Shown piece after piece: positions 24,412 through 64,000 of a DNA stretch of 64,000 nucleotides; within the stretch, counting starts at the first letter, position 1; the number at the start of each line of letters is the position of its first letter. Source of the DNA: Candidatus Enterousia sp. GTDB taxonomy: Bacteria > Pseudomonadota > Alphaproteobacteria > Rs-D84. The stretch lies in the NCBI GenBank assembly GCA_045634865.1, contig JAZRBB010000002.1, positions 5,088 through 69,087 on the forward strand. Reading direction: 5' to 3'. A program made the translations under genes and the position numbers. The notes below the pieces were generated by a model that made no database searches, was not told where the DNA came from, and saw nothing but the letters and a program-made list of their open reading frames with translations.

Positions 24412-25407
24412 CTATACAACTTCTGTCACAGCACGCAGTGCGCCATCACGCGATAATTGAACCACGCGGATTTTCTTTTTCATTTCTGCGATTAAGTCTG
24501 TGCGGTTATATGCCGGTTGGGTATGCAAAATACGGTCTGCAAATGCTGCGTATGCAGCCTCTGCCGACTCTGCATGAATTGTCGTATAGAAATGGTCGTG
24601 TCCTGTGCCTAACATTTCCCACAGCACAGACGCATTGTCTGTTGATATTTCACCACCGATAATTACGTCAGGTGTCATACGAACAACCAAGTCCAGCAAT
24701 CTGGCATAATTAAAATCGTTTGTTTGTTCTGTTCTGGATAATACAAAATGTACGCGATTTTTTTGTGGAACTTTGATTTCACGCGCGTCTTCCACAGTAA
24801 TAACACGACTGTTCTGGTCGATAAGTGTCAACATATGATTCAGAAATGTTGTTTTACCAGTTGCGGTTGCACCGCTTATTAAAATAGGACTGCCGTCATT
24901 GATTGCAGACATCAATCTGTCATATGGGTCGTCTGGGCGAATCGATTTACGGGGTTTGACTTTCAATAACTTTTTGCCCCGTTCCAAATGATAATTCTTG
25001 AAATCAACATCTGGGGCACCACCACCACGAATATTCAGTGCAACACCGCCAGTCACATCACGTTCATCATATTGGACGTTTGGACCAGCAATCGCAGAAA
25101 AACGATGATTGCCGGGCAGGGTAGCGTAAACCACAGGCATACCACGAATCGGATCAAACGGGCGTTCGTAAATGTTGGCAACAGTGTGAATCAAATCAAC
25201 CAGATATTGTTTTGACAAGATATCTGAATTATACGCCACCCATGGAACGCGCGCACCATGCAGACGCATCCATACTTCGCCAGCGTGGTTTATTGCGATT
25301 TCTTCCACGAAAGACGGAGTATAAAAATCTTCCAATGGTTTCAATAAAGATTCCAGAACTACATTTCCCATAATTACTATTTTATCATAAATCGTTGCTT
25401 GAATCAA
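24412..25407 (-). CDS. virB11: VirB11/TrbB-family type IV secretion ATPase
   Basis: 331 aa; Walker A GATATGKTT; Asp box, Walker B and His box in VirB11 order; VirB11-like size. Confidence 0.75.
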   Translation of the reverse strand: MIQATIYDKIVIMGNVVLESLLKPLEDFYTPSFVEEIAINHAGEVWMRLHGARVPWVAYNSDILSKQYLVDLIHTVANIYERPFDPIRGMPVVYATLPGNHRFSAIAGPNVQYDERDVTGGVALNIRGGGAPDVDFKNYHLERGKKLLKVKPRKSIRPDDPYDRLMSAINDGSPILISGATATGKTTFLNHMLTLIDQNSRVITVEDAREIKVPQKNRVHFVLSRTEQTNDFNYARLLDLVVRMTPDVIIGGEISTDNASVLWEMLGTGHDHFYTTIHAESAEAAYAAFADRILHTQPAYNRTDLIAEMKKKIRVVQLSRDGALRAVTEVV

Positions 25408-26502: not shown

Positions 26503-27498
26503 ATGACGGATATAAATAATCAAATTGCTATATATGTTGCAGAAAATGGTCAAGCCAAAATAGATGTTCGGGTTCAAGATGATACTGTTTGGCTGACGCA
26601 AAATGCTATATCTAAATTATTTGGAACAACAACACCCAATATAAATATGCATATTAAAAATGTTTTGTCCGAAGGCGAATTAGACGCAAATTCAACTATT
26701 AAGGATTTCTTAATAGTTCGAACCGAAGGAAAACGGCAGATTTCTCGTAATATAACACACTATAATTTGGATATGATTTTGTCTGTTGGATATCGGGTTA
26801 AATCTAAAACCGCAACTCAATTTCGTATCTGGGCAACAAAAACATTAAAAGATTATTTATTGCAAGGTTATGTTGTAAATCAACAAATGTTGTCTGAACA
26901 GAAATCTAAGATGCTGATGCTACAAAAAACTATGGATTTAATGACGCGCAGTATTGAAAATCAGGCTGAAAACCTGGATGCAGCACAACAAGTGTCGCGT
27001 GTATTAAATGATTTTGTAAAAGGACTGAATTTATTGGACGATTTTGACCATAAAACATTAGACACCAAAGGCAAGACCAAGGCAAAAGCAGTTGTTATAA
27101 AGCCAGATGAATTTTTATCTGTGGTTGATAAAATGAAAGGCTGTTTTGCAAGCGATGTATTCGCTAAACCAAAAGACGCAAGTTTTTACAGTTCTGTATC
27201 CCAGATATATCAAACATTTGATAGCAAAGACCTGTATCCAACATTGGAAGAAAAGGCTGCAACATTACTTTATTTAATTGTTAAAAATCACAGTTTTGTT
27301 GATGGAAACAAACGTATTGGTGCCAGTTGTTTTCTGTATTTCTTGGATAAAAACAATATGCTTTATGACGATATAGGGCAAAATTTAATTGATGATTCGA
27401 CATTGTTTGCATTGACATTGTTGATAGCAGAAAGCAATCCAGCAGAAATTGATACTGTGAAACAGGTTGTTATCAGCATATTAAATCGCAGAATGTAA
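26503..27498 (+). CDS. RhuM-family protein with C-terminal Fic/Doc domain
   Basis: N-terminal RhuM-like region (VWLTQNAISKLF); C-terminal Doc motif HSFVDGNKRIGA. Confidence 0.7.
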   Translation: MTDINNQIAIYVAENGQAKIDVRVQDDTVWLTQNAISKLFGTTTPNINMHIKNVLSEGELDANSTIKDFLIVRTEGKRQISRNITHYNLDMILSVGYRVKSKTATQFRIWATKTLKDYLLQGYVVNQQMLSEQKSKMLMLQKTMDLMTRSIENQAENLDAAQQVSRVLNDFVKGLNLLDDFDHKTLDTKGKTKAKAVVIKPDEFLSVVDKMKGCFASDVFAKPKDASFYSSVSQIYQTFDSKDLYPTLEEKAATLLYLIVKNHSFVDGNKRIGASCFLYFLDKNNMLYDDIGQNLIDDSTLFALTLLIAESNPAEIDTVKQVVISILNRRM

Positions 27499-29704: not shown

Positions 29705-29947
29705 ATGACGCATGAAGATGTGTGGAGCGCAATAGAAAAATTTGCTACTGAACATAATATGTCGTGTTCTGGTTTAGCAAAATGTAGTGGTCTGGACCCG
29801 ACAACATTCAACAAAAGTAAACGTTGGTCAAAAGAAGGGCAACCCAGATGGCCATCGACAAACAGTATTTCCAAGATTTTATCTTCTACGGGTGCATCTT
29901 TGGAAGATTTTACTAAATTCATCCCATCACAAAACGTTGATAGATAA
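29705..29947 (+). CDS. stand-alone HTH domain resembling the N-terminal domain of alphaproteobacterial CI/LexA-like (S24) phage repressors; no peptidase domain
   Basis: VWSAIEKFATEHNMSCSGLAKCSGLDPTTFNKSKR...RWPSTNSISKILSSTGASLEDF matches the conserved N-terminal module of that repressor family; 80 aa only. Confidence 0.55.
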   Translation: MTHEDVWSAIEKFATEHNMSCSGLAKCSGLDPTTFNKSKRWSKEGQPRWPSTNSISKILSSTGASLEDFTKFIPSQNVDR

Positions 29948-31139: not shown

Positions 31140-31283
31140 TTGTCTTGACTTTTATGTCAATTTGTGATATTATATGAAACATCAAGAATAGAAATATTGT
31201 CCGCGTTGTGCGGATTTTTTTATTCTTTATTTGTGCCCATGCATTTTTATGCGTGGGCTTTTTTCAACTAAAACAGGTCAAAC

Positions 31284-31694
31284 ATGCAACTAACATTGAT
31301 TGAAAACCCAGATAATACAAAATCTGTATTATATAAATTGGCACGCATAGTTTATGCGGAAACATTGGCGTCATCTTTGCAAATCACAGAAGCAATGGCT
31401 TCAATGATTTATAATATTCATATTAAATATAATAAATCGTTTGAAGATATAGCAAACGATTCAGATTTATTTGAATCGCTGAACGAAACATCTGCGCGTC
31501 ATGAATATCTGAATGTTCCGGTGCCGGACAGAAAGTTTCAAATGTGTTTACGTGTCGTGCAAAAAATGATGCATGGTCATTTACGCGATTGTGTTTTTGG
31601 TGCAACAAATTTTCATCATTCAGATGTGATGCCACAATGGGCTGTTTCACGTGGTTATATTGCAGAGTTTGATGATGTTCTGTTTTATCTTTGA
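31284..31694 (+). CDS. SleB-like cell-wall hydrolase (phage/GTA-type endolysin)
   Basis: LARIVYAE...ATNFH motif of Hydrolase_2 family; first gene of the phage-like block. Confidence 0.65.
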   Translation: MQLTLIENPDNTKSVLYKLARIVYAETLASSLQITEAMASMIYNIHIKYNKSFEDIANDSDLFESLNETSARHEYLNVPVPDRKFQMCLRVVQKMMHGHLRDCVFGATNFHHSDVMPQWAVSRGYIAEFDDVLFYL

Positions 31695-31712: not shown

Positions 31713-31904
31713 ATGAATAAAATAATCAAAGGCGGATATTTAGCAGGACGTAAAACATACGTGATTTCTGCGGTTGGCATAATGTCTGCGATTGGCGCTT
31801 ATTTAATAGGCGAAGGCGATATATTTACAACATTGCAAACGATTTTCACGTTGGGCGGTATTTATTTTCTGAAACAAGAATCTTCAACACAAAGGAAAAA
31901 ATAA
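31713..31904 (+). CDS. small membrane protein (possible holin)
   Basis: 63 aa, two hydrophobic helices; adjacent to the endolysin-like gene. Confidence 0.35.
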   Translation: MNKIIKGGYLAGRKTYVISAVGIMSAIGAYLIGEGDIFTTLQTIFTLGGIYFLKQESSTQRKK

Positions 31905-32566
31905 TGGAACAGATACCAGAAAAATTTCTTGATGAAAACGGTGAATTAAATACATCTGCTTTGGTTAAATCATATTGTGAACTGGAAAAGAAGATGGGAA
32001 CAATGGTTTCTGTGCCAAATGAAAACAGTGATGATACAACAAAACAAAAATTTAATCATGCAATTGGTGTGCCTGATAATGCATCTGAATATCCAACCAA
32101 TTCATTACTTGATGACGAATCGGTTCGCGAAAAATTTCATGAAATTGGATTGACTTCTAAACAAGTTGAACAAATTTATAACATCGCTGAAGAATTTTTA
32201 CAACCAACAATAAATAATTTGTTTGCATTACAAACACAAACAAATGCAATAAATGAATTGAAAAATTTTTTTGGTGGAACAGAAAAAATGAACGAAGCAA
32301 TGAAAGCAATAAATGCATTCGGTGAAAAATTTTTGCCGACTGATGCGTTTGATGCATTGTGCTCTACACCCCAGGGAATCCAAGGGGTATACAAGATGAT
32401 GCAATCTTTAGAACCAGAAGTTTTGATGAATAAAAATGCAACAGAAAATCTTACTGATGATGATTTAAGAATGATGATGCGTGATCCAAAATATTGGCGT
32501 GATCATGATGAAGAGTATGTAAGAAAAATAGAAAATGGTTTCAAGAAATTATATTCACAAAAATGA
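31904..32566 (+). CDS. acidic alpha-helical protein, possible scaffolding protein (T7 gp9 position)
   Basis: Position immediately upstream of the capsid gene; acidic composition. Confidence 0.35.
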   Translation: MEQIPEKFLDENGELNTSALVKSYCELEKKMGTMVSVPNENSDDTTKQKFNHAIGVPDNASEYPTNSLLDDESVREKFHEIGLTSKQVEQIYNIAEEFLQPTINNLFALQTQTNAINELKNFFGGTEKMNEAMKAINAFGEKFLPTDAFDALCSTPQGIQGVYKMMQSLEPEVLMNKNATENLTDDDLRMMMRDPKYWRDHDEEYVRKIENGFKKLYSQK

Positions 32567-32659: not shown

Positions 32660-32953
32660 ATGTTCTTTGGTTCTAAGAAAAAATGCACAGCTGCAAAACC
32701 AGCTGCAAAAAAAGTAGCAGTTAAAAAAGTTGCTGCTAAAAAACCAGCTGCAAAAAAAGTTGCTGCAAAGAAACCAGTTGCTAAGAAAGTAGCAGTTAAA
32801 AAACCTGTTGCAAAAAAAGTAGTTGCTAAAAAAGCACCTACAAAAAAAGTAGCAGTTAAAAAAGTTGCTGCTAAAAAACCAGCTGCAAAAAAAGTAGTTG
32901 CTAAAAAAGCACCTGCAAAAAAGGCTGTTAAAAAAGTTGCAAAGAAAAAATAA
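32660..32953 (+). CDS. histone H1-like lysine/alanine-rich repeat protein (tandem AAKKPAAKKV(A) units)
   Basis: 97 aa, about 14 tandem repeats of a 7-8 aa KK(P/V)AAKK unit; strong RBS aaaggagag; the 32644..32961 minus-strand ORF is its antisense mirror. Confidence 0.6.
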   Translation: MFFGSKKKCTAAKPAAKKVAVKKVAAKKPAAKKVAAKKPVAKKVAVKKPVAKKVVAKKAPTKKVAVKKVAAKKPAAKKVVAKKAPAKKAVKKVAKKK

Positions 32954-33190: not shown

Positions 33191-34018
33191 ATGTCTATGT
33201 CTGTAGATCAAGTGTTTATAAAACAATTTGAAGCAGATGTTCATTTGGCTTATCAACAAATGGGCACAAAATTGCGTTCCACAATTCGCAGTAAAACTGG
33301 TGTTGTTGGAACATCAACAACTTTTCAGAAAGTTGGCAAAGGTATCGCCAGCACAAAATCGCGTCATGGTATTGTGCCAGTTATGAATCTAAATCACACA
33401 CCAGTAGAATGTACATTGCAAGATTACTATGCAGGTGATTGGATTGATGCATTGGATGAATTGAAAACAAACGTTGATGAACGTCGTGTTGTTGCGTCTG
33501 CTGGTGCATATGCTTTGGGTCGTAAAACAGATGAATTAATTATTGCGGCGATGAATACAGCAACTCAATACGTTGGTGATTATTCTACGGGCTTAACCAA
33601 AGCATTGATAATGTCAGCAATTGAAAAACTGAATACAAACGATGTTCCAGATGATGGTCGCAGATATGCAGTTGTTGGTGTTCATCAATGGAATGAATTG
33701 TTGGCTTTGGATGAATTTGTTTCTGCTGACTATGTTGGCGGTTCTACACCATTAATCGACGGCTGTGAATCCAGAAAATGGTTGGGTGTGAATTGGATTT
33801 TGTGCAACGCATTGCCTTTGGCAAGCGGTGATGATCGTGATTGCTTTATTTATCACGCTTCCAGCATTGGTCATGCATGTGGTCAAGAAGTTAAAACAGA
33901 TATTACATGGCATGGTGAACGTGCTGCACACTTTATCAGCAACAGCATGTCCCAGGGTGCTGTATTGATTGATGCAGAAGGAATTGTCCGTATTAAATGT
34001 GACGATGATGCTGCTTAA
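33191..34018 (+). CDS. T7-like (gp10-family) major capsid protein
   Basis: Collinear similarity to T7 gp10A blocks (VDERRVVASAGAYALGRKTDELIIAAM ~ YDVRSEYTSQLGESLAMAADGAVLAEI; C-terminal G.ESRKWLGVNWILCNALP ~ G.IRNVMGFEVVEVPHL). Confidence 0.65.
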   Translation: MSMSVDQVFIKQFEADVHLAYQQMGTKLRSTIRSKTGVVGTSTTFQKVGKGIASTKSRHGIVPVMNLNHTPVECTLQDYYAGDWIDALDELKTNVDERRVVASAGAYALGRKTDELIIAAMNTATQYVGDYSTGLTKALIMSAIEKLNTNDVPDDGRRYAVVGVHQWNELLALDEFVSADYVGGSTPLIDGCESRKWLGVNWILCNALPLASGDDRDCFIYHASSIGHACGQEVKTDITWHGERAAHFISNSMSQGAVLIDAEGIVRIKCDDDAA

Positions 34019-34340: not shown

Positions 34341-34859
34341 ATGTTTACGAAAATAGATTTATGTTCTATGGCTTTGTTGAAATTAGGTGAAACACCAATT
34401 CAATCTTTGCGTGAAGAGTCTGTCAAAGCACAATTGGCCAGAACTTTGTTTGATTCCACAGTAGATACTTTGTTATCTATGTTTCCATGGCGATTTGCGA
34501 CTCAATCAATAGTGTTGAATAAAAATTCTGATGGCGATTTTATTATTCCATCTAATGTTTTAAGAATCATTAAATGTGATGGTAAAATTATTGGTAATAA
34601 AATCATAAATTCATCAGAAATAACAGAAATTATAGCGATTGTCCGCACAGAACCAGAATCTTTCCCTGGATATTTTGCAACTTTGGTCGCAACAAAATTA
34701 GCAGTAGAATTCAGCATTCCATTGATTGGTGATACAAATATATTCAATATGATGATGGCTTTGTATGAATCAGAATATCAATCTGCAAAATTCATAGACA
34801 GCACAACATCGAACCAAACAAATATTGATAACTTTTCTTTGATAAATTCCAGATTTTAA
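34341..34859 (+). CDS. T7 gp11-like tail tubular protein A
   Basis: N-terminus MALLKLGETPIQSLREESVKA ~ T7 gp11 [20 protein letters not shown]; size and gene order. Confidence 0.55.
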   Translation: MFTKIDLCSMALLKLGETPIQSLREESVKAQLARTLFDSTVDTLLSMFPWRFATQSIVLNKNSDGDFIIPSNVLRIIKCDGKIIGNKIINSSEITEIIAIVRTEPESFPGYFATLVATKLAVEFSIPLIGDTNIFNMMMALYESEYQSAKFIDSTTSNQTNIDNFSLINSRF

Positions 34860-34874
34860 TCAAAAGGATTTGAT

Positions 34875-36587
34875 ATGGGAAACTTTCTTAGTACACAAAA
34901 TATGTTTTCTTGTGGAGAAGTATCGCCAGAATTTTATGCAACACACAATATGCATGGACTGACAAAACTAGAAAATATGGATGTATTGCAATCTGGCGGA
35001 TTAAAACGTAGACCCGGACTGAAATCCGTAAAAACAATATCTGGCGAGTCAATTTTAATTCCGTTTATTGTTAACGATACGGAAAAATATCTGGTTTTGG
35101 TACGTGATTCAGCGATAGATATATACAGTAATGATGTAAAAATAAAATCTTTACCAGCCCCATGGGGAGTATCTGATTTCAAGAAGTTGCAATATGCACA
35201 GCGATTTAACAAATTATTTTTTGTGCACCCAAATTACAAGCCACGTGTGCTAACCAGAACAGACAACAATTTTAATATTGCTACATTTGTTTTCAAGGCC
35301 AATTCAGATGCCAGTGCCAATATGCCGTTTACACGCTTTGAAGACACAGAAGGTATGTCAATTACAATCAGTCATAGTGATATTGATAACAGTCATGCAG
35401 TATTTACTACAAGTGCAGATTTTTTTACAAATGCATCTGTGGGGCAAGTTTTATTGGTATTATCAAAACAATGGATTGTTCAGAGTGTTCAGAGTGCGCG
35501 TGTTGCAACGGTTTATACTAATGGTGGTTATACACTTCCGAATGCCCCGGTTTATGACTGGTACGAATGTGTTTTTTCTGATAAACGTGGTTGGCCATCT
35601 TGTGTATCATTTCATCAGAATCGACTGGTTTTTGCGGGGACTCCATCGGCTCCAAATGGAATATGGATGTCCAAGACTGGTGATTATTATAACTTTGATA
35701 CAGGAACTGGTTTAGATGACGATGCAATTTATACATCTTTGTTATCAGCGCAACATCATCAAATTTGCACAGTTGTAAGCAGTGATAAATTACAAATTTT
35801 GACATCACTAGGCGAATGGGCTATATCCAGTTCACCGTTAACCCCATCTTCTGTATCTATTAAACAACATACTTCTGTGGGGACTAATGCGGATATATAT
35901 TTGCCACCCCAACAAATAGAAGGAAGTACTGTGTTCGTTGCAAAGTCGGGTAAAGATATACGCGAACTAGATTTAGACGCATTGGGCGAAAACTATAATG
36001 CAACAGATTTATGTGCCTTGTCTAAACATTTGATGAATACACCTATCAGTATGGCATATAGCCAGCAAAAACATCGGTTATTCGTTGTTATGGATAGTGG
36101 TATTATGGCTGTATTAAATAAATATTCGGGAACAGATATTTCTGCATGGGGGACATACACCACAGACGGTAAATTCAAATATGTTTGTGTTTTTGATGAT
36201 GTTGTGTATGTGATAGTAAGCAGAAATGGTACTTATTCATTGGAAAAATTTGATGATACTTGCCTGTCAGATGCAGGGACATACGGTTTTTCGTATCGAA
36301 TATCTGCATTTCCAATGATAGTAAATGGGCATTGTCCAAAGAAAATTCGTATTCGGAAAGTGTCTTTGCGTGTAATGAATACAAAAACGTTATTTATAAA
36401 TGAACAACGTATTGAAATACCTAATCTTGTTTATACAGACGATAACCCTGGATACAGTGGAGATTTGTCTGTAAATATGTTGGGAACCCAAAACGAAACC
36501 ATGAAAGCATTGTGGTCTTTATCAAGCAGTGAACAATTACCAGCAACCATATTATCTATCAGTGTTGATGGCTGGTATTCAATATAA
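34875..36587 (+). CDS. T7 gp12-like tail tubular protein B (570 aa)
   Basis: Position after the gp11-like gene; large beta-rich protein; family assignment mostly by synteny. Confidence 0.45.
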   Translation: MGNFLSTQNMFSCGEVSPEFYATHNMHGLTKLENMDVLQSGGLKRRPGLKSVKTISGESILIPFIVNDTEKYLVLVRDSAIDIYSNDVKIKSLPAPWGVSDFKKLQYAQRFNKLFFVHPNYKPRVLTRTDNNFNIATFVFKANSDASANMPFTRFEDTEGMSITISHSDIDNSHAVFTTSADFFTNASVGQVLLVLSKQWIVQSVQSARVATVYTNGGYTLPNAPVYDWYECVFSDKRGWPSCVSFHQNRLVFAGTPSAPNGIWMSKTGDYYNFDTGTGLDDDAIYTSLLSAQHHQICTVVSSDKLQILTSLGEWAISSSPLTPSSVSIKQHTSVGTNADIYLPPQQIEGSTVFVAKSGKDIRELDLDALGENYNATDLCALSKHLMNTPISMAYSQQKHRLFVVMDSGIMAVLNKYSGTDISAWGTYTTDGKFKYVCVFDDVVYVIVSRNGTYSLEKFDDTCLSDAGTYGFSYRISAFPMIVNGHCPKKIRIRKVSLRVMNTKTLFINEQRIEIPNLVYTDDNPGYSGDLSVNMLGTQNETMKALWSLSSSEQLPATILSISVDGWYSI

Positions 36588-36974: not shown

Positions 36975-37523
36975 ATGTATAAAATATCATATACCTCTGA
37001 TGGTGTAAGTACAGAATATACTTTTTCTTTTCCTTTTTTCCAAAACGCAGATATCAAAGTATCTGTTGATGATGTTGTATTAGATGACAATGATTACACA
37101 GTGACCCCAAATAGCAATTTTATTGGCGGAACAATTTGTTTAGCAAATGCACCACAATCTGGCAAACAAATAGATGTTTTCAGGCATGTGTCATTGAATA
37201 GGGTGATTGATTATCAGCCAACGCTGAAAATAGATCCAGAAGATTTAAATTCAGATTTCAATTTTTTGTTGGCGGTATGTCAAGATTTGCAAGATATTGA
37301 TATCGATGTTTCAGAGTGGGCAAATTTGCGTGACAACATTTTACCAAAAATTAATTATGTTATTGATACTATATCAGATAAAATGTCTGGTGGTGCGGTA
37401 TTGGGACTTTATAACAATTTGTTGAATGTTTTGGACGGCGCTTTGCCTCTGTTGATAAATGATTATGGATTAGTTTCTGAAGAAGCAGACAATGCAACCA
37501 GTGACGATTACGGCAGCATATAA
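36975..37523 (+). CDS. tail fibre protein, N-terminal tail-attachment domain only (T7 gp17 N-terminus-like)
   Basis: YKISYTSDGVSTEYTFSFPFF....KVSVDDVVL...DYTV......I.L.......IDVFRHVSLNRVIDYQPT parallels T7 gp17 residues 1-150; only 182 aa, no distal domain. Confidence 0.6.
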   Translation: MYKISYTSDGVSTEYTFSFPFFQNADIKVSVDDVVLDDNDYTVTPNSNFIGGTICLANAPQSGKQIDVFRHVSLNRVIDYQPTLKIDPEDLNSDFNFLLAVCQDLQDIDIDVSEWANLRDNILPKINYVIDTISDKMSGGAVLGLYNNLLNVLDGALPLLINDYGLVSEEADNATSDDYGSI

Positions 37524-38118
37524 TTTTCTGGATGCTTGGAATAATGTGTTGGGATTCCAGACACCAAAACACCATCGACAGATAATGGAATTTTTGACCG
37601 ATGTATTAAATAATGAACCACATCGTGGATTATTAAATGCTTTTCGGCATTCTGGGAAATCTACGGTTGTTGGGGTGTTTGCGGCATGTGTTTTATATCA
37701 CAGACCTGAAACCAGAATATTAATATTATCTGCAGAATCAAATTTAGCGTCGCGCATGGTTGCACATATTCGCAATATTTTGGAAAACCATCCTTGGTGC
37801 ACAGATATTTTACCAAAGGTAAAAAAAGAGTGGGGAACACATAAAATTACAATTAAACGTCCCATAGGAATTCGAGAACCGTCTGTTATATGCCAAGGAA
37901 TTTCCGGAAATATAACAGGTATGCGTTCTGATTTGATAATATGTGATGATGTAGAGGTGCCAAATACTTGTAATACCCGGCAGAAACGCGACAATTTGAG
38001 AGAAAGGCTACGTGAATTGGATTTTATTTTATCACCAAACGGAACAATGATTTACATAGGCACACCACATACCAAAGATACAATATACAAAACAGATCAA
38101 GATATATCAGATAATTGA
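37492..38118 (+). pseudogene. large terminase subunit, N-terminal ATPase part (gene interrupted after the ATPase domain)
   Basis: Walker A-like RHSGKST; ...LIICDDVEVPNTCNTRQKRD... IYIGTPH; frame terminates at 38118 where the insertion begins. Confidence 0.7.
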
Positions 38119-38745
38119 CATAAATGTACGTAATTTAGTCAGCAGTTCTTCACCTGCTTCACCGAACATGGGCAGGTATGTTTCGAATTCAAGCATATCT
38201 GCCTGAATTTGAGCGCGACTGCGGTCCGTCAAAGGTTCTGATGTTAGTCGTTTTGCGGTATCCCAAGTGCGATATGCCTTGTCAGTACGAGAAACCAAAT
38301 CCCATTTTGCCAGTAATTCATTATTATTTGCTAGCATTGGTTTAATACTATCAACCCAATCATGGCCGAACTTTTTTACAAAAGGTAATTGATTGATTTT
38401 GCTTAATCCTTCGGGGGTTGTTTCGAAATTATCCAAAGCAATTTGTAGTTGTTTGATTTCGTCTGGTGTCAAAGATGTTTCGGTTTCATGACCAAACATC
38501 ATGCCACCGTATGGTAATAAATCAACCTCTATAGAATCCATAGGTGTTTTGCCACTGCGCAGATTTTCAATATGTTTAACTAGTTTTGCACCGGTTGGCA
38601 GAGATGCCAAAGCGGTAATAACATTTTCATCATTGGATTCGCGCAAAAACACTTCGTTGACAGCCGCCCAACCGCCTTCTATGACATGTTCTTGGCGATA
38701 CAGATTCAGTAACCTTTGGGCTGTCACTAATGTGTGTTGTTGCAT
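38107..38745 (-). CDS. hypothetical protein (212 aa) within the terminase-interrupting segment
   Basis: Opposite strand to the phage structural genes; no family recognised. Confidence 0.4.
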   Translation of the reverse strand: MQQHTLVTAQRLLNLYRQEHVIEGGWAAVNEVFLRESNDENVITALASLPTGAKLVKHIENLRSGKTPMDSIEVDLLPYGGMMFGHETETSLTPDEIKQLQIALDNFETTPEGLSKINQLPFVKKFGHDWVDSIKPMLANNNELLAKWDLVSRTDKAYRTWDTAKRLTSEPLTDRSRAQIQADMLEFETYLPMFGEAGEELLTKLRTFMSII

Positions 38746-38773
38746 TTGTCCCTCCCTCTCTTATAGGATGTGG

Positions 38774-39781
38774 CTATTTCGTCAAAACCATTATAACCTT
38801 GTGCATGGTTTTGCCTGTCACTTTTTCATCTGGATTTGAAATATGGCCGTACAATTTGCCAGATGAATCTTTGCGGACAACTGCAATCTGGGCAGAAACA
38901 GTATCATTTTCAGTCAAAGAACTAAAATCAGCATCCACAATCACAGCCAAATCACCAACAGCAGGAGTAAGACTTGCATCTGCAAATACATAAGAATTTT
39001 CGGGTATAAAACCGCCCAGACGTTTAGAATTTGGTTCTATTGCGTAAACACAACAACAGCCCTCCAAAGAAACGGGGGCAACAATCATAGTTTCATCAGA
39101 TTTCTTGAATTTGATTGATTTTTCAGATGGTGTGCCGAACACAGGAACCAATTTTTTACGCGCATTATCATACAATTGTGCACCATATAAACCGCAGTTC
39201 ATATTCAAGCCAGATGCAGGATTGCAAGGTTCCAAAACCGCTTTGACACGTTCTTTAACTTTGTTCATTTGTTTATTTAATTCCCCAGAATTATACAATC
39301 TGGCAATTTCATCAAACAATTGAGATGCGGTATAACCAAAAACATTTGCCAAAGGCTCAATTTCATTTTCATAAACTTCACGTTGACCAACTTCAAGTTT
39401 ATGATAAACAGACAGAGTCATATTTGCTGCCTTCGCAGTTTCCGCAATGGTTTTATCTGCACGCTGACGGATTTTACGTAGACCGCTACCAAAAACTTTC
39501 AGACCGCTGTCTTCATTATCTGTTAAACGGCGTTTGATTTCATTTTGCCATTTATCTGCATACTTATCTGTTTCATGTATAAACAGGTCAGATAATTTGC
39601 AACCCAATATAGAGCACACATTTAACAATTGCTTTTGATTCAGGCGACGAACGCCTTTTTCAATTTTTGACACAGCAGACAAAGATAAATTTGCGCGTCT
39701 TGCTAATTCGGTCATACGCATCCCTTTGGATGCACGAATATTACGAATATTATTTGGAAAAATGATTTCTTCTTGGGCCAT
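38774..39781 (-). CDS. CI/LexA-like repressor: two tandem XRE-family HTH domains plus C-terminal S24-peptidase-like domain
   Basis: Start MAQEEIIF with perfect RBS aaggag; two HTH_3 units (RASKGMRMTELARRANLSLSAVSKIEKG and RQRADKTIAETAKAANMTLSVYHKLEVG); C-terminal beta-rich domain with LexA-like architecture. Confidence 0.6.
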   Translation of the reverse strand: MAQEEIIFPNNIRNIRASKGMRMTELARRANLSLSAVSKIEKGVRRLNQKQLLNVCSILGCKLSDLFIHETDKYADKWQNEIKRRLTDNEDSGLKVFGSGLRKIRQRADKTIAETAKAANMTLSVYHKLEVGQREVYENEIEPLANVFGYTASQLFDEIARLYNSGELNKQMNKVKERVKAVLEPCNPASGLNMNCGLYGAQLYDNARKKLVPVFGTPSEKSIKFKKSDETMIVAPVSLEGCCCVYAIEPNSKRLGGFIPENSYVFADASLTPAVGDLAVIVDADFSSLTENDTVSAQIAVVRKDSSGKLYGHISNPDEKVTGKTMHKVIMVLTK

Positions 39782-39849
39782 GATAAACTCCTTAAAGTAC
39801 TTTGACAAAATAATAGTCAATTTTTATAAAATTAGCAAGGAAAAATTTA

Positions 39850-41394
39850 TTAAATGAAATCATCTGGTGCATCAATAACGTCAGGAACCACAGAAGTATC
39901 AGCAACATTTTGTTGTTGATACTGAGTATCAAATTCATCTGTTGCAGGTTGTGGACCAAATTGGTTAAGATTGTCAAACAAATAGTATTCGCCAAAGAAA
40001 CTTAAATGCACTGTTTCAGGTTTTCCATGACGGTTTTTTGCGATAATTAAATCAGCCTTGTTTCTGGCATTGTCCAGACGATTCTGCCAATGCTGGGTCG
40101 CATTTTCAGATGCATTACCAGACAGTCGTTGTTCAGGTGAACGTCCGCTTAGATAATATTCTTCGCGGTATGTGAACATAACAATATCAGCATCTTGCTC
40201 AATAGAACCGGATTCACGCAAATCTGATAACACAGGGCGTTTATCATCGCGTTGTTCGACACTACGTGACAATTGTGATAGGGCGATTACGGGGACGTCC
40301 AGCTCTTTTGCTAAGATTTTCAATCCACGAGTAATTTCAGATAATTCTTGGACACGATTATCGCTGTGTTTGCCCCCAGGCGAAGTCATCAACTGCAAAT
40401 AATCGATAACGATTAAAGCAATGCCGCCAGATTGACGGGCAATTCTGCGTGCACGTGTTTTTATCATAGCCACAGACATATTTGCGGTGTCATCAATAAC
40501 CAATGGCAATTTCGATAATGCATTGGCATATTCAGACATTTTCATAATGTCTTCGTCAGTTAAATTACCATCGCGCATACGTGCCGCAGGAATTTTTGAT
40601 TGGGAAGATAATATACGTGCTGCTAATTGTTGATTTGACATTTCAAGACTGAAAAACACGACTGCGCCATGGTATTTATCATTTGCGCGCTTGTTAAATA
40701 TAGCATTTGCAGCATTGAATGCGATATTCATTGCAACAGTAGTTTTACCCATACCAGGACGACCAGCAATAATCAGCAAATCAGAATGATGCAGGCCACT
40801 GATAGATTTATCCAAATCATCAAGACCAGTGGTCAAACCAGACAATTTACCATCGGCTTTATAAGCAATTTCTGCTTCTTCCAAAGCACCTTTTAATGCG
40901 TCTGCCAATGAAACAATATTATGTTCAGACTTACCGGTTGAAGCCAAGTTAAACAATTTTTGTTCAGCAGATTCAATTTGTACGCTGACAGGATTATCCA
41001 AATCTTCGGTATATGCGTTGTCCATAACGCTTTGCCCCAGACCGATTAAATCGCGACGTCTGGCATTATCAAAAACGATTTGTGCATAATGGTCGACATT
41101 TACAACAGTTGAACCAGCAGATGCCAGTTTAGAAAGGTATTCTACACCGCCAACGTTTTCCAAAACACCTTGTTGTTCAAGATATGTTTTTGCGGTGATT
41201 ATATCAAACGGTATCCCCGCAGAAAATTGACGTAATGCCAGTTTATAAATTTCTTGGTGAGCGGGATGCGAAAAATGCTCTGGCAACAGAAAATCAGAGA
41301 TGTTTTCCAATGCACGATTGTTCATCAAGACCGCGGCCAGAACGGCTTGTTCGGCTTCTAGATTCACAGGTAAGGTTTTCGGAGTAAAGTCCAT
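39850..41394 (-). CDS. dnaB: replicative DNA helicase DnaB
   Basis: Start MDFTPKTLPVNLEAEQAVL (ORF-track 5' extension is spurious); Walker A GRPGMGKTT; Walker B LIVIDYLQLM; RecA-like and N-terminal DnaB domains. Confidence 0.85.
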   Translation of the reverse strand: MDFTPKTLPVNLEAEQAVLAAVLMNNRALENISDFLLPEHFSHPAHQEIYKLALRQFSAGIPFDIITAKTYLEQQGVLENVGGVEYLSKLASAGSTVVNVDHYAQIVFDNARRRDLIGLGQSVMDNAYTEDLDNPVSVQIESAEQKLFNLASTGKSEHNIVSLADALKGALEEAEIAYKADGKLSGLTTGLDDLDKSISGLHHSDLLIIAGRPGMGKTTVAMNIAFNAANAIFNKRANDKYHGAVVFFSLEMSNQQLAARILSSQSKIPAARMRDGNLTDEDIMKMSEYANALSKLPLVIDDTANMSVAMIKTRARRIARQSGGIALIVIDYLQLMTSPGGKHSDNRVQELSEITRGLKILAKELDVPVIALSQLSRSVEQRDDKRPVLSDLRESGSIEQDADIVMFTYREEYYLSGRSPEQRLSGNASENATQHWQNRLDNARNKADLIIAKNRHGKPETVHLSFFGEYYLFDNLNQFGPQPATDEFDTQYQQQNVADTSVVPDVIDAPDDFI

Positions 41395-42241
41395 GTCTTT
41401 TAGATTAAACGAAAATTTTAATAATTCAATACCTTTTTTGGTGGGGTATAAACATTTGAAAATACCAATAGTCGACAGTGCCGGAAATCCAGCATGGCCA
41501 GAGTTATTTCCAATTGAAAAAATCAACGATTTACAACGAATTGTGGGCCCAAGACATTTTTCTGCCCAAATGATGTTGGAATATATATCAGAAGAAAAAG
41601 CATATCTGGACCCTGGGGCATTAAAGTTTTACGTCGACGATTTTGATTACCGTAATTCACATATCGGGGAACATTTAATCACAGGTGTTTCGTTGTATTG
41701 GGATCCATCATCTGGACATCACGTATCAGATGGTAGTGTTTGTGCCTTGGTTTATCGTGATGATAAAAATAAAACCGCTTTTATTCACGACATTATGTAC
41801 ATGAATGTCGAGGACGAAGATTTGCATCCGCTGGCGACACAATGCGAACAGGTGCTGGCTTTTATGCAAAGACACAAAATAAGCAGAATAGGGGTTGAAA
41901 TCAATGGTATTGGTAATGCATTACCCGAAATATTGCGACGCATATCGGATGCAGAGCAAATGTCTATCAATATTATTCAGATAGCAAATCACACCAAAAA
42001 AGAAACCAGAATTTTGAATGCTATTGAACCGATGTTGACTACGGGTCGCTTGTTTGCCAGAAACACAATTCAGCAAACAATGTTGCTGTCTGAAATGTTG
42101 GCGTGGTCGCCAATTGGTTCCAAAGAACATGATGATGGTTTGGATGCTGTTGCAGGTGCACTTGCAATGACACCGATTCCAACCAGAACTTTGATAAATC
42201 ACTCTGGTTTAATCAAGGCAAATACTGAATTCAACATATAA
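41393..42241 (+). pseudogene. large terminase subunit, C-terminal hinge plus nuclease part (TIGR01630-like); no start codon of its own
   Basis: NPAWPELFPIEKINDLQRIVGPRHFSAQMMLEYIS hinge motif; acidic nuclease residues (VDDFDYR, HDDGLDAVAGA); frame is open from 41300 but overlaps the dnaB start on the opposite strand. Confidence 0.65.
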
Positions 42242-42263: not shown

Positions 42264-43487
42264 ATGCAAAAAAATCTTATGCAATTATATAAACGTGCGC
42301 TAGATGAACGCAGTGTATGGCTTAATCGCTGGAAAACGGCTATGCGATATACAATTCCAACAGACGATTCAGATGTCGCAACACTATTTGATGCTACTGC
42401 ATCTGATGCCGTTGATAATTTGGCAGCATCTATGTATTCTTTGCTGACACCACCAGAATCTTTGTGGATAAATTTAGTTCGTGAAAGCGAATTGTCACCA
42501 AATGCAGAATTTGCAACAGATATGTTGCGTGCGCATTTGAACGATTCTAATTTTTATACAACAATACATCAATGTTATACAGATTTGGTTGTTTTGGGTA
42601 CAGCGTGTTTATTTATGGCAGAAAATCCAATCGGTGCAGATTCTGCATTTTCATTTACTGCAATTCCAATGTCTGACATAGCGATATTACCAGGCGCAGT
42701 TTTTCATGCGACTTCTATGCCAGCCTGTGATTTGATGGACAAATATCCAGATTTTGTAATGCCGTCGCATATGCGCGATACCGTTAAAAATAATCCGCAA
42801 ACCCAAATCAGATTGGTTCAATCTTTGATAGGTAAAGATTTTACAGCATGGGTTGATGTCGGTGGGGATATTGAAAATAATATTGTTTCGCGTGGCACAT
42901 TTGAAACAAATCCATATATTATATTCCGTTGGTCTGTGGTTAGTGGTGAATTATATGGACGGGGGCCGGTATTGCGTGCTTTGCCAGATATAAAAACTGT
43001 AAATAAAGTTGTAGAATTAGTCTTGAAAAATGCAACTATCGCAGTCAGTGGTATATGGCAGGCTGATGATGATGGAGTTATCAATTTATCAAATATAAAT
43101 TTAACACCTGGGGCAATTATACCAAAAGCTGTGGGCAGTTCGGGTTTAACCCCGTTATCCAGTGGTGCAGATTTTGATATATCGCAAATTGTACTACGTG
43201 ATTTACGCGACAGAATCAGACATACTTTATTGGCAGACAGACTTGGGTTATTATCAGATAAAGAAATGACCGCCACAGAAATATTAGCGCGTAATTCGGA
43301 TATGGTGCGCATATTGGGCGCAACCTATGGCCGTTTGTTGCACGAATTTATCAGGCCACTTTGTGAACGTGGTTTGCAGATATTATCACGTCGTGGATTG
43401 ATAGATAAAATATCTTTGCACAGCGATGCAGAATTGAAATATATTGCGCCAATCGCACAAATGGCACGTGAAGAAATGGCTATATAG
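42264..43487 (+). CDS. T7 gp8-like portal (head-to-tail connector) protein, 407 aa
   Basis: N-terminus LYKRALDERSVWLNRWKTAMRYTIPTDDSD.....DAVDNLAASMYSLL parallels T7 gp8 VYERLKNDRAPYETRAQNCAQYTIPSLFPKDSD...GARGLNNLASKLMLAL. Confidence 0.65.
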   Translation: MQKNLMQLYKRALDERSVWLNRWKTAMRYTIPTDDSDVATLFDATASDAVDNLAASMYSLLTPPESLWINLVRESELSPNAEFATDMLRAHLNDSNFYTTIHQCYTDLVVLGTACLFMAENPIGADSAFSFTAIPMSDIAILPGAVFHATSMPACDLMDKYPDFVMPSHMRDTVKNNPQTQIRLVQSLIGKDFTAWVDVGGDIENNIVSRGTFETNPYIIFRWSVVSGELYGRGPVLRALPDIKTVNKVVELVLKNATIAVSGIWQADDDGVINLSNINLTPGAIIPKAVGSSGLTPLSSGADFDISQIVLRDLRDRIRHTLLADRLGLLSDKEMTATEILARNSDMVRILGATYGRLLHEFIRPLCERGLQILSRRGLIDKISLHSDAELKYIAPIAQMAREEMAI

Positions 43488-43496
43488 GATTGAAAA

Positions 43497-43697
43497 ATGC
43501 AAGATATAGAAAAACAATATGCACGAACATTTGCTACACCATCTGGAAAACAAGTGCTGATTCATTTGCGTTCCATAACATTGGAACGCATTGTCGGACC
43601 AAATGCTTCAAATGAAGATTTGCGCTGGTGGGCTGCACAAAATGCTTTGGTACATCAAATTGAAAATTTAATAAACAAAGGGAAAAATCCAACATGA
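43497..43697 (+). CDS. small phage protein
   Basis: 66 aa, overlaps next gene start. Confidence 0.3.
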   Translation: MQDIEKQYARTFATPSGKQVLIHLRSITLERIVGPNASNEDLRWWAAQNALVHQIENLINKGKNPT

Positions 43698-43954
43698 CAA
43701 AGCAAAATACAATGAATGACATATTAGAAATTCTGCGCAACAGTTGGTTTTTAATTGCTTTTGTCGCAGGCATTATTTATTGGGTTGCGCGTCAGGATTC
43801 GTCATTGTCTGAATTGGAACGCCAAGAACAACGGATAACATCTTTGGAAAACAGAACCACAATTCTTGAATCTGGTATCGGTCAATTGCAATTGAAAATA
43901 GACGGAATCAAAGAAGATGTGACAATGATTAAAAGCGCAGTTATTAAAAACTAG
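43694..43954 (+). CDS. small membrane-anchored coiled-coil protein
   Basis: TM helix WFLIAFVAGIIYWV followed by heptad region. Confidence 0.35.
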   Translation: MTKQNTMNDILEILRNSWFLIAFVAGIIYWVARQDSSLSELERQEQRITSLENRTTILESGIGQLQLKIDGIKEDVTMIKSAVIKN

Positions 43955-62314: not shown

Positions 62315-63610
62315 TTATTTTTTCAATATATCACCAGATTTAATATATTCTGGGGAGTCTTTCTTTGCCTTCTTTTGTGCAGCCTTGGCGTATTTTTTGG
62401 CGTTTTTTTCGTCACCGTTCATTTTATAAAACTCTGCCATTGCCCAGTCCGACGTTGCGCCATTTGATACGCGTGCCAAAATCCAATAAGCCAAAGGTGA
62501 TGGTTCATTTAATATAACACGTCTGCAAAGTTCGCCTGCGCGGTCTGTATCCCCAGGTTTATTACGTTCAGACAATACTAATGCCAAAGCGGTTTCAATT
62601 TGTGGCGCATTATCTGATAGTTTCAGGCTTTGTTCATACGCGTCAATACTGTCATCATAATGCCCGTATTGGTATTCTATGTCCCCCAATAATTCATAGA
62701 AATAGGGCGATTTTGGATGACGTTTAATCAATGTCTGGGTGCCTGTTTTTGCAGTGTCCAGATTCCCTGCGCGCATATTTGCAATCGCGCGCGCATAAAT
62801 TGCAGAATCAGATTTGTCTTTGTATGGGTATCTTGTCAGAACTGTTTTATCATTATCTAAATACCCAACCAATTTGGCACGCAAAATCTCATAGTTTTTA
62901 TTTTCTGTTGCAATCTCTTCAGCAGATTTCTTTGGTATATTTTTTAATTTTTCAATTTTTGTTTTCGCGTTATTCAATCTTTCATTAGTCAATGGGTGAT
63001 TTATACGATTTGGGTTTATGCGACTCTCAAATGCACCGTTTATATCACGCATTTGATTAAAGACCTCAATTAAACCGTTTGGATCTTGGTTTGCTTTGAC
63101 CATCAAATCAACAGCCATATCATCAGCCATACGTTCTTCGTCACGCGTAAATGATAACATAGATTGCTGACCAATGCCTGTAGCCCCAGCCATTACCCCT
63201 GCACCTGCAGATGGATTTCCGCCTGCAACCATCAAGCCAATCCCCAATGCCTGAATAATCATAGTACGCATCATTTCATTTTGCATGCGTTCTGATATTT
63301 GCACCATATGACCGCCAATTGTGTGTCCCAATTCGTGCGCCAGCACAGCCCGCAAAGCATTTGGTGATTTAATTTGTTTTAACAGACCTGTATAAACAAA
63401 GATATCTTCGCCACCACGAACGAAAGCATTAAAATTATCATCGCGAACGATATACACTTTTAATCTGTCTTCTGGTATGTTTGCAACTTTGGCAATCGGT
63501 GCAACAATTTTTGCAATTCCTGATTCTATTTCTGTGTCGTTAATCAGGGTTGCAGCATTTCCGCCAAACCCAACAAGCAAAGCAAATAAAATTACCAATA
63601 TGCGTTTCAT
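62315..63610 (-). CDS. bepA: M48 metalloprotease with TPR repeats (BepA/YfgC-like)
   Basis: Signal peptide; HELGH; C-terminal TPR repeats. Confidence 0.75.
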   Translation of the reverse strand: MKRILVILFALLVGFGGNAATLINDTEIESGIAKIVAPIAKVANIPEDRLKVYIVRDDNFNAFVRGGEDIFVYTGLLKQIKSPNALRAVLAHELGHTIGGHMVQISERMQNEMMRTMIIQALGIGLMVAGGNPSAGAGVMAGATGIGQQSMLSFTRDEERMADDMAVDLMVKANQDPNGLIEVFNQMRDINGAFESRINPNRINHPLTNERLNNAKTKIEKLKNIPKKSAEEIATENKNYEILRAKLVGYLDNDKTVLTRYPYKDKSDSAIYARAIANMRAGNLDTAKTGTQTLIKRHPKSPYFYELLGDIEYQYGHYDDSIDAYEQSLKLSDNAPQIETALALVLSERNKPGDTDRAGELCRRVILNEPSPLAYWILARVSNGATSDWAMAEFYKMNGDEKNAKKYAKAAQKKAKKDSPEYIKSGDILKK

Positions 63611-64000
63611 TATGCACCTGCGATTGTTGAACAGTCAAAAATCTGACGTAATGTTGCTGCCCAGACTTTGTCATCGTCATTATTATTCATTGCGGCAGTT
63701 TGTGCCAACTTGAATAAATCCCTGTGTTCGCGATAATTTACAAAATGATATTGTATCCATCCGCTTTGTTTCGTTCCCAATAATTCGCCAACACCACGCA
63801 TCATTAAATCTTGTTCTGCAATGGCAAAGCCATCTTCGGTTTCGCATAATACATCCAATCGTTTCAGACCATCAGGGGTTATGTTGTTTCCATATAACAA
63901 TATGCAATATGATTGCAAAGAACCACGTCCCACGCGTCCGCGCAATTGGTGCAATGCTGCCAGTCCAAATCTTTCTGCATTTTCAATCACCATAATTGTT
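63610..64000 (-). CDS. recG: ATP-dependent DNA helicase RecG, C-terminal part (gene continues past window end)
   Basis: Helicase motif [14 protein letters not shown] plus RecG C-terminal tail. Confidence 0.8.

Follow-up and report, generated by a model that had tools for sequence, protein, structure and literature searches.

How does the gene for a viral packaging enzyme come to lie in two pieces on either side of a bacterial replicative helicase gene, and can its product still act as an enzyme? The question is raised by a stretch of 64,000 nucleotides (nt) from Candidatus Enterousia sp. (assembly GCA_045634865.1, contig JAZRBB010000002.1, positions 5,088-69,087, forward strand), the whole of which we call the window. 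Enterousia belongs to the uncultured order Rs-D84, in which genomes are reduced, mostly to <1 Mb (PMC12306168). Between lipB and yraN the window carries a 12.8-kb cluster of podovirus-type genes (T7/BPP-1 type) in which the large terminase subunit (TerL) gene is interrupted by 3.3 kb of opposite-strand genes that include dnaB. A sequence-only reading of this DNA had offered three explanations: an essential host helicase captured inside a prophage gene, a second mobile module that had landed in the terminase, or a terminase that works as two polypeptides. The last of these is the best-supported functional reading. Our best explanation of the whole, to which we assign a probability of roughly 60%, is that the cluster is a remnant of a podovirus, resembling a gene transfer agent (GTA), with host genes nested in a two-piece terminase. 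The features at the interruption are these, with protein lengths in amino acids (aa):

37492..38118, forward strand: TerL-N, 208 aa, the ATPase core of the terminase (phrog_38 match, E=1.3e-45)
38107..38745, reverse strand: a 212-aa all-alpha protein without a family match, encoded by the regulator's partner gene
38774..39781, reverse strand: the regulator, 335 aa, with two HTH_3 domains (Pfam) and a C-terminal domain of about 150 aa and uncertain fold
39802..39838, reverse strand: predicted regulator promoter, TTGCTA-17 nt-TATTAT with a palindrome over the -10 element, conserved in 33 loci
39850..41394, reverse strand: dnaB, full length, encoding a replicative helicase of cellular type (NF006606, Pfam DnaB and DnaB_C)
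41393..42241, forward strand (41381..42241 with its Shine-Dalgarno sequence): TerL-C, 282 aa, comprising the last ATPase strand(s), the lid helices and the RNase H-like nuclease (WDPS ... HDDGLDA)
41395..41439, reverse strand: candidate dnaB promoter within TerL-C codons 1-16 (sequence geometry and conservation)

TerL-N covers positions 283-459 of the phrog_38 profile (terminase large subunit), and the forward frame ending at 42241 covers positions 468-703. They are thus neighbouring segments of a single TerL and not unrelated genes, with three minus-strand genes between them, as the sequence-only reading had described. TerL-C also matches the Pfam family Terminase-T7_RNaseH-like (PF22530) above its cut-off (E=6.5e-9), and the pieces, taken together, can be aligned from one end to the other with intact homologs (470-497 aa). 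The ATPase and nuclease domains lie on two open reading frames (ORFs), here 3274 nt apart, in all 31 loci in which both junctions were compared (28 distinct sequences), and the intervening island is 3269-3337 nt long. The same junctions recur in independent assemblies, and an assembly artefact is therefore excluded. Catalytic motifs are present on both sides of the cut: TerL-N has Walker A (SGKST), Walker B with the catalytic Glu (IICDDVE) and the C-motif (GTPH), all kept in four orthologs and in intact homologs, and the acidic nuclease residues of TerL-C (D312, D321, E377, D455/D456, and D459) are invariant in 36 sequences.

The first reading correctly ended the ATPase half at 38118 but placed the break at the hinge. 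Alignment to intact homologs puts the end of TerL-N 10 residues past the C-motif (GTPHTKDTIYKT), at about residue 214 of T7 gp19 (profile alignment, E=1e-41), and homology restarts in TerL-C at FL.GY..LKIPI; the gap between the pieces corresponds to a loop of 6 to 13 residues whose length varies among intact homologs. A model of the two pieces fused in silico adopts the canonical TerL fold (mean predicted local distance difference test score [pLDDT], 87), and its sole internal stretch with pLDDT <50 is residues 208-219, that is, the junction. Beyond the junction, one strand (228-232) and two helices precede the nuclease sheet, which starts at ~286-302. It matches the full-length terminases of PhiV-1 (8dgc_E, E=1.7e-27), D6E (TM 0.6-0.7), T4, and Sf6, and aligns over ~290-310 columns with ATPase-only structures of P74-26 and T4. 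Alignment and model therefore place the cut inside the ATPase domain and not at the hinge; both put the break in a surface loop of variable length that follows the C-motif. The PhiV-1 and T7 gp19 terminases (PDB 8DGC and 4BIJ) share the same motifs with the enzyme described here, which differs from them in its cut and in being at most 27% identical to the TerL of any isolated phage.

TerL-C had been taken to lack a start codon of its own. An ATG at 41393 is preceded, 8 nt upstream, by GGAG (41381-41384), which lies within dnaB codons 4-5, and public gene callers predict the same 282-aa protein in ~90 of 120 protein clusters among the matches listed. These observations bear on whether the pieces might be joined into one polypeptide by RNA splicing (a group I or II intron) or protein splicing (a split intein). 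There is precedent for both routes: the podophages phD2B of Lelliottia and K1E of Escherichia coli carry a T7-type terL as two ORFs that jointly give the full protein, with an intron containing a homing endonuclease between them (PMC4246154), and fractured genes with split inteins are known as well (PMC2677866). In those phages, however, a self-splicing intron on the same strand yields one polypeptide, whereas here three cellular genes intervene on the opposite strand, TerL-N ending in its own stop codon and TerL-C beginning with its own start. No intron family was detected in the window at Rfam gathering thresholds (tRNAs only), and the extra residues at the junction (0 to 7 after the homologous part of TerL-N and ~14 before that of TerL-C, hence at most 21) are too few for intein halves. 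We consider splicing extremely improbable.

The terminase most likely acts instead as two polypeptides assembled non-covalently, because purifying selection acts on the two pieces throughout and their catalytic motifs are intact. The nrdA gene of Aeromonas phage Aeh1 is split by mobE, and its products reassemble into an active enzyme. Both cases involve an enzyme gene split by inserted free-standing coding sequence; the Aeh1 insert is a selfish endonuclease gene in a phage genome, whereas here an essential host gene and a host operon lie in a bacterial chromosome and activity is predicted.

Related loci were found by a DnaB scan (one genome per GTDB species), in IMG/VR, and among Logan contigs. 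Every locus opened through a TerL-C homolog has the order lipB, hydrolase, scaffold, capsid, two tail genes, a 115-aa gene, in some a fibre N-terminal domain, TerL-N, then the 212-aa gene, regulator, and dnaB on the opposite strand, TerL-C, portal, Bbp19-like gene, 86-aa gene, and yraN, with bamA and rseP beyond (L001, L003-L005, L009-L012, L015, L016, L040, L090, and IMG/VR loci). The DnaB scan returned nine metagenome-assembled genomes (MAGs) at 65-74% identity, seven with the same order, one on a short contig (L013), and one decayed (L014); IMG/VR added ~30 further loci. Comparison of orthologous loci thus finds the 3.3-kb segment present in the same lipB ... yraN/bamA slot in all 31, and the loci are collinear with the window through both junctions at 68-76% nucleotide identity. 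A Logan contig with 98.2% identity to the window encodes exactly the same TerL-N protein. Homologs of TerL-C that are 282 aa long range in identity from 92% down to 58%, and one homolog is named Candidatus Enterousia merdequi. In L090, TerL-C (protein P0054, L090 8228-9436) has 402 aa through a tandem duplication of ~120 residues in the nuclease domain, which may be real or an assembly error.

In comparisons of the window with three relatives, the proportion of nonsynonymous differences (pN, 0.04 to 0.31) was well below that of synonymous ones (pS, 0.43 to 0.83) for all cluster genes, the nested genes, bamA, and rseP. Amino acid identity in the phage-type genes parallels that in bamA and rseP (capsid, 95/95/81%; portal, 90/91/81%; TerL-N, 83/84/72%; TerL-C, 68/63/59%; bamA, 83/84/74%). 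The median ratio of nonsynonymous to synonymous substitution rates (dN/dS; only pairs with 0.1<dS<1) was 0.07 for TerL-N and 0.15 for TerL-C, with 0.06 for the portal, 0.02 for DnaB (0.008 to 0.02 across analyses), 0.08 for the regulator, and 0.20 for the 212-aa protein; a within-species pair agrees with the wider set. No internal stop was present in 42 TerL-N and 39 TerL-C orthologs. On this comparative evidence the split arrangement is no accident and has been kept by selection across many species.

The nested dnaB is of cellular ancestry. Its product passes the NCBIfam equivalog NF006606 (607 bits; cut-off, 540) and TIGR00665 (505 bits; cut-off, 385) but falls below the cut-off of phage_DnaB (413 bits; cut-off, 499), and it has both helicase domains (PF00772, 5e-31; PF03796, 1.6e-100), in agreement with its host-like appearance in the first reading. 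It is the only DnaB-like sequence in the window, as also first noted, and a pattern-limited scan gave one DnaB match per related assembly. The nearest DnaB proteins outside the clade (49-50% identity) come from other gut Alphaproteobacteria and sit in ordinary contexts, with a sugar transporter and a phosphatase upstream and YgjP, Bax1-I, and MurJ downstream; the flanks of the window share no neighbouring genes with the closest of these outgroup loci. The best DnaB from an isolated phage is 43% identical. One apparent phage entry, MT835812.1 (L089, "Bacteriophage sp."; DnaB 50% identical), was rejected as a phage and is a bacterial chromosome fragment; its 17 kb encode DnaB, a YgjP-like peptidase, Bax1-I, and MurJ. 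The N-terminus MDFTPKTLP is conserved and as long as those of outgroup DnaB proteins, and 41394 is therefore the true dnaB start.

The regulator does carry the two helix-turn-helix (HTH) domains first ascribed to it (HTH_3 at residues 12-66 and 97-151), but its S24-like character was not established. Its C-terminal half has no Pfam match even at E=1 and no LexA match, and its only, weak profile match is to an S24 repressor (hhalign probability, 37%), in an alignment that pairs the catalytic Ser with an invariant Arg; judged by eye, four orthologs have Arg and two have Lys at the candidate S24 Lys position. The 212-aa protein remains without a recognised family, as in the first reading: it has no Pfam, NCBIfam, or PHROG match, its model has no fold match, and its family is narrow (48 representatives among 1.8 billion). 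Two distant members (L171 and L173) again lie directly downstream of an HTH regulator, the upstream gene in L171 running off the contig end. In L173, from another alphaproteobacterium, the regulator shows 37% identity along the entire protein; greA and plsY/dprA flank the pair there, and neither dnaB nor any phage gene is close by. This ordinary chromosomal context makes the supposed repressor one half of a two-gene unit and not a phage immunity gene; on gene order and homology, the unit is a conserved chromosomal one. The spacer between dnaB and the regulator contains a perfect palindrome, TTGAC-N9-GTCAA (39802-39820, minus strand), conserved in 33 loci, which is probably the regulator's own autoregulatory operator. 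The window has no second perfect copy, and one-mismatch matches number 4 against 3.2 expected by chance. By eye, a TTGAC-N6-GTCAA lies inside the late promoter described below in the window and in L004, and is not conserved further.

Judged by these affinities, all three nested genes are host genes. The alternative that a mobile replication and lysogeny module, consisting of a repressor and a helicase, landed in a prophage terminase draws on the juxtaposition of a repressor-like HTH protein and a DnaB-family helicase, as in phage replication regions, and on matches of the nested genes to phrog_19 and to phage repressor PHROGs. Against it stand the profile scores, the lower identity of isolated-phage DnaB (43%, against 49-50% for cellular neighbours), and the chromosomal regulator pair in a distant alphaproteobacterium. 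Moreover, no integrase, transposase, terminal repeat, or target-site duplication was found, GC content and third-position GC content (GC3) are alike in cluster, island, and host genes, with no compositional break, and the island persists where phage genes decay (L014). We regard such a module as very unlikely.

Neither the repeat finder, which gave short matches at chance level, nor comparison of 28 loci revealed a direct repeat, terminal repeat, or target-site duplication common to both junctions, and the left junction varies in sequence and length (TerL-N tails of 0 to 7 residues). A gene interruption fixed in a lineage does recall elements excised during development, such as skin in sigK or the nifD type, and removal of the 3.3 kb in producer cells would restore terL; since such cells lyse anyway, loss of dnaB would, by reasoning only, do no harm. 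Yet no recombinase domain occurs in or beside the island, no shared direct repeat is available to recombine, and TerL-C has a conserved Shine-Dalgarno sequence and ATG, making programmed excision highly improbable.

The terminase and helicase genes are interlocked. The start codons of dnaB and TerL-C overlap in the tetranucleotide CATG (41392-41395), as expected from the overlap first noted between the dnaB start and the resumed terminase frame, and the junction block GGAGTAAAGTCCATG is invariant in relatives. In a scan of synonymous variation (33-34 loci; TerL-N, 212-aa gene, regulator, dnaB, TerL-C, and portal; 6-codon windows), TerL-C codons 1-15 had synonymous differences of 0.08 against 0.45 gene-wide, and codons 3-17 scored 0.01-0.14; no other stretch in the six genes fell below 0.15, save one borderline regulator window (0.15). 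The constrained stretch probably contains the dnaB promoter. On the minus strand it holds a -35 element TTGAAT (41424-41429) and a -10 element TAATCT (41402-41407), with an A-tract at 41432-41439, in the arrangement TTGAAT, 16 nt, TAATCT, 7 nt, ATG; other sub-lineages have a second variant with the same geometry (TTGAAA, 16 nt, TACTAT, 7 nt, ATG). The 7-nt interval between -10 and ATG predicts a leaderless dnaB mRNA, which fits the absence of a dnaB Shine-Dalgarno sequence. No comparably constrained stretch was found by the scan inside dnaB upstream of TerL-C, and TerL-C therefore seems to lack a conserved promoter. Not every relative has the close CATG overlap: in L013 (MAG WRIM01000036.1, 1007-3182) an extra 2.2 kb separates TerL-C from dnaB. 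That insert includes a homolog (74% identity) of an ORF at window positions 63610-63993 (minus strand).

The decayed locus L014 (MAG JBAYXF010000016.1, 1-5300) provides a natural experiment. Its capsid gene is cut to 94 aa, only the last 30 TerL-N residues are left, and the portal and Bbp19 genes have gone. All three nested genes, by contrast, are intact, and TerL-C survives as an ORF. Here dnaB has been inverted in place together with ~40 bp of upstream sequence, which now reads TTGCAA-16-TATAGT-7-ATG, and is followed by a terminator. That the inversion carried the upstream stretch along supports the dnaB promoter assignment. Together with the profile scores and the cellular relatives of dnaB, its persistence here where phage genes have decayed supports in substance the proposal that a host helicase was captured in a prophage gene, except that the element is no ordinary prophage but a cluster of head, tail, and lysis genes fixed in the chromosome and inherited vertically.

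L014 also bears on the possibility that the split terminase is a relic, inactivated by the insertion and no longer packaging, whose pieces are kept for overlapping host signals or another role. The DNA-level constraint on the first 17 TerL-C codons, beyond that on the protein, would be expected of a relic, as would the persistence of the TerL-C ORF in L014 without capsid, portal, or TerL-N; the truncated fibre and the lack of a recognised small terminase or core proteins point the same way. However, purifying selection runs along the full length of both pieces (dN/dS, 0.07 and 0.15; no stops in 42 and 39 orthologs), the Walker A, Walker B, C-motif, and nuclease Asp residues are kept, and conservation of the portal, capsid, and tail genes is as strong as that of bamA. 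TerL-N, which overlaps no host signal, is moreover the better conserved piece. A relic is unlikely on this balance, and we return to a terminase working in two pieces within a structural cluster whose remaining features are as follows:

31145..31173, forward strand: predicted near-consensus promoter of the structural operon, TTGACT-17 nt-TATTAT, extended TG (promoter scan; conserved in 8 divergent loci)
31199-31215 and 31235-31258, forward strand: two tandem terminators, each a hairpin with a U-run, in the leader before the first gene
31284..31694, forward strand: cell-wall hydrolase for lysis (Pfam Hydrolase_2, E=2.6e-4, below the curated cut-off; the L004 ortholog is of the same family)
31904..32566, forward strand: T7-type scaffold protein (Pfam Phage_T7_Capsid assembly, E=2.3e-10)
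33191..34018, forward strand: major capsid protein (Pfam Phage_capsid_2, E=6e-73)
34341..36587, forward strand: two tail proteins of 172 aa and 570 aa (570-aa protein, phrog_376 tail protein, E=5.5e-96; the L090 ortholog of the 172-aa protein has a weak Tube match)
36975..37523, forward strand: tail-fibre N-terminal domain only, 182 aa (Pfam Phage_T7_tail, E=6.4e-7)
42264..43487, forward strand: T7-type portal (Pfam Head-tail_con, E=1.1e-80)
43497..43954, forward strand: Bbp19-like protein (66 aa) and an 86-aa coiled-coil protein with a faint likeness to XhlA (profile search)

Lysis, scaffold, capsid, tail, terminase, and portal are thus the only phage functions of the cluster, and profile searches found no phage-own integrase, replication, or lysogeny gene. 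Between scaffold and capsid, a 97-aa ORF rich in Lys and Ala (32660-32953, plus strand) matches the histone H1-like family HC2 (Pfam E=1.7e-12) and could be a DNA-condensing particle protein; a similar ORF precedes the capsid remnant in L014. Upstream of lipB, an 80-aa Cro/CI-type HTH protein (29705-29947, plus strand) is 42% identical to part of the S24 repressor coding region of L008, where that repressor flanks a cluster with an intact TerL, and may survive from the regulatory region that the element first had. Farther upstream, a fragment of a T2SSE-type secretion ATPase (24412-25407, minus strand) and a RhuM/Fic-domain protein (26503-27498, plus strand) are unrelated to the split.

The leader suggests how the operon might be expressed. 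A promoter followed by terminators upstream of late genes is the layout of a phage late operon, and the promoter and both hairpins are kept in all 8 divergent loci while the stem sequences differ, which indicates compensatory change. A strong promoter followed by two terminators would mean that the structural operon is probably opened by antitermination, a type of control we infer from this layout. Lambdoid phages control their late genes in such a manner, through the promoter PR', the terminator tR', and the antiterminator Q. In both cases a strong promoter and close terminator(s) precede lysis, head, and tail genes; the leader here differs in its two tandem terminators, the lack of a recognised Q-like protein, and the predicted antisense run through three host genes.

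A fixed locus, host-like substitution rates, particle genes only, and retention in genomes of <1 Mb together characterise domesticated elements of GTA-like kind. The cluster is inherited vertically at one chromosomal position and is under purifying selection like that on host genes, and the GTAs RcGTA of Rhodobacter and BaGTA of Bartonella likewise combine such a position and inheritance with a phage-derived head-tail-lysis cluster lacking replication and integration genes. BaGTA is reported to evolve at substitution rates like those of core genes (PMC3610622), as does the cluster here. Unlike RcGTA, which is siphovirus-like, and BaGTA, for which a lambda-like portal and terminase were described (PMC2697382), the cluster is of T7/BPP-1 podovirus type (portal PF12236, capsid PF19821, and tail tube genes); it also differs from these GTAs in its two-piece terminase with nested host genes. 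The cluster may make particles or transfer DNA. Because of the low GC content and the helicase beside phage genes, the run-off-replication/BaGTA region of Bartonella was considered as a counterpart and rejected, as its published gene set is different (exonuclease, Twinkle-like helicase, and lambda-like terminase; PMC3610622, PMC2697382). In the searchable literature we found no description of a podovirus-type GTA, of any Rs-D84 phage element, or of a split terminase of such a kind.

The nearest intact TerL proteins (38-44% identity) are not those of isolated phages but belong to compact chromosomal clusters of other Alphaproteobacteria. Such clusters (L006, L007, L008, L133, and others from IMG/VR among L115-L170) are widespread there, span ~10-13 kb, and have no obvious replication or integrase genes. 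Those with the nearest TerL proteins run in the order portal, Bbp19, scaffold, capsid, tail A, tail B, small genes, TerL, and hydrolase. Of the three examined in detail, two encode a GTA_holin_3TM-family protein. An ORF of 674-763 aa occupies the fibre position, with a pectate-lyase domain in L006 and L007. IMG/VR holds many intact-TerL regions of ~12-13 kb, some with identifiers like those of isolate genomes, for instance one with 72% GC. Together, these compact clusters may represent an undescribed family of domesticated podovirus-type elements. TerL proteins of at least 57% identity are all split, and those of at most 44% are all intact and at other loci; no intact terL, the pre-insertion state, was found at the lipB/yraN slot.

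We propose that in an ancestor of the lineage a 3.3-kb block of three host genes was placed, inverted, inside terL. Two overlapping inversions with a common end point could have inserted an inverted block with its flanks unturned. The terminase would since have been made as TerL-N (208 aa) and TerL-C (282 aa), reassembling non-covalently. An antiterminated polymerase would run from 31.2 kb through TerL-N, antisense over the island, and on to TerL-C, the portal, and the last two genes, which would explain the missing TerL-C promoter and would direct late transcription head-on against dnaB and over its promoter.

Several points weigh against this explanation. Precedent for an active terminase cut inside the ATPase domain was not found in the searchable literature. 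Read-through over 3.3 kb of antisense genes is conjecture, and no antiterminator, either a Q-like protein or an RNA, was recognised. The dnaB promoter is called from sequence geometry and conservation, and its -10 element in the window (TAATCT) agrees with the consensus at 3 of 6 positions. No small terminase or T7-type internal core proteins were recognised, save a faint gp14-like match (E=0.014), and the tail-fibre gene retains just its N-terminal domain or, in several relatives, is missing (L003, L004, L010, L011, and L016 compared), which puts receptor recognition in doubt and makes DNA delivery by particles uncertain. Finally, L014 has lost the capsid, the portal, and most of TerL-N, indicating that the cluster is dispensable.

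A bolder extension, which we hold to be possible though doubtful, is that a podovirus-derived GTA and the replicative helicase gene have been fused into one regulatory unit, with a two-chain packaging ATPase cut inside its RecA-like core and antiterminated late transcription that meets dnaB head-on on its way to the second chain and the portal. Since late transcription would pass through dnaB and over its promoter, commitment to making particles would of itself switch off the helicase and arrest replication, and the essential dnaB would in turn guard the cluster against deletion in a shrinking genome.

If the two pieces do work together, evolution would here have shown for the first time that a large terminase can tolerate being cut within the ATPase domain, and the pair would serve as a naturally split enzyme with which to study the construction of the packaging motor. 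The findings also point to a family of compact domesticated podovirus-type head-tail clusters in Alphaproteobacteria. Retention of the cluster in genomes of <1 Mb, which have shed most dispensable genes, argues for a useful role, and the arrangement suggests a possible coupling of particle production to replication arrest. At the junction, dnaB and TerL-C share their start codons, and the predicted promoter of the one and ribosome-binding site of the other each lie inside the other's coding sequence. An essential replication gene interleaved in this way with a virus-derived gene would be one way for an element and its host to become inseparable.

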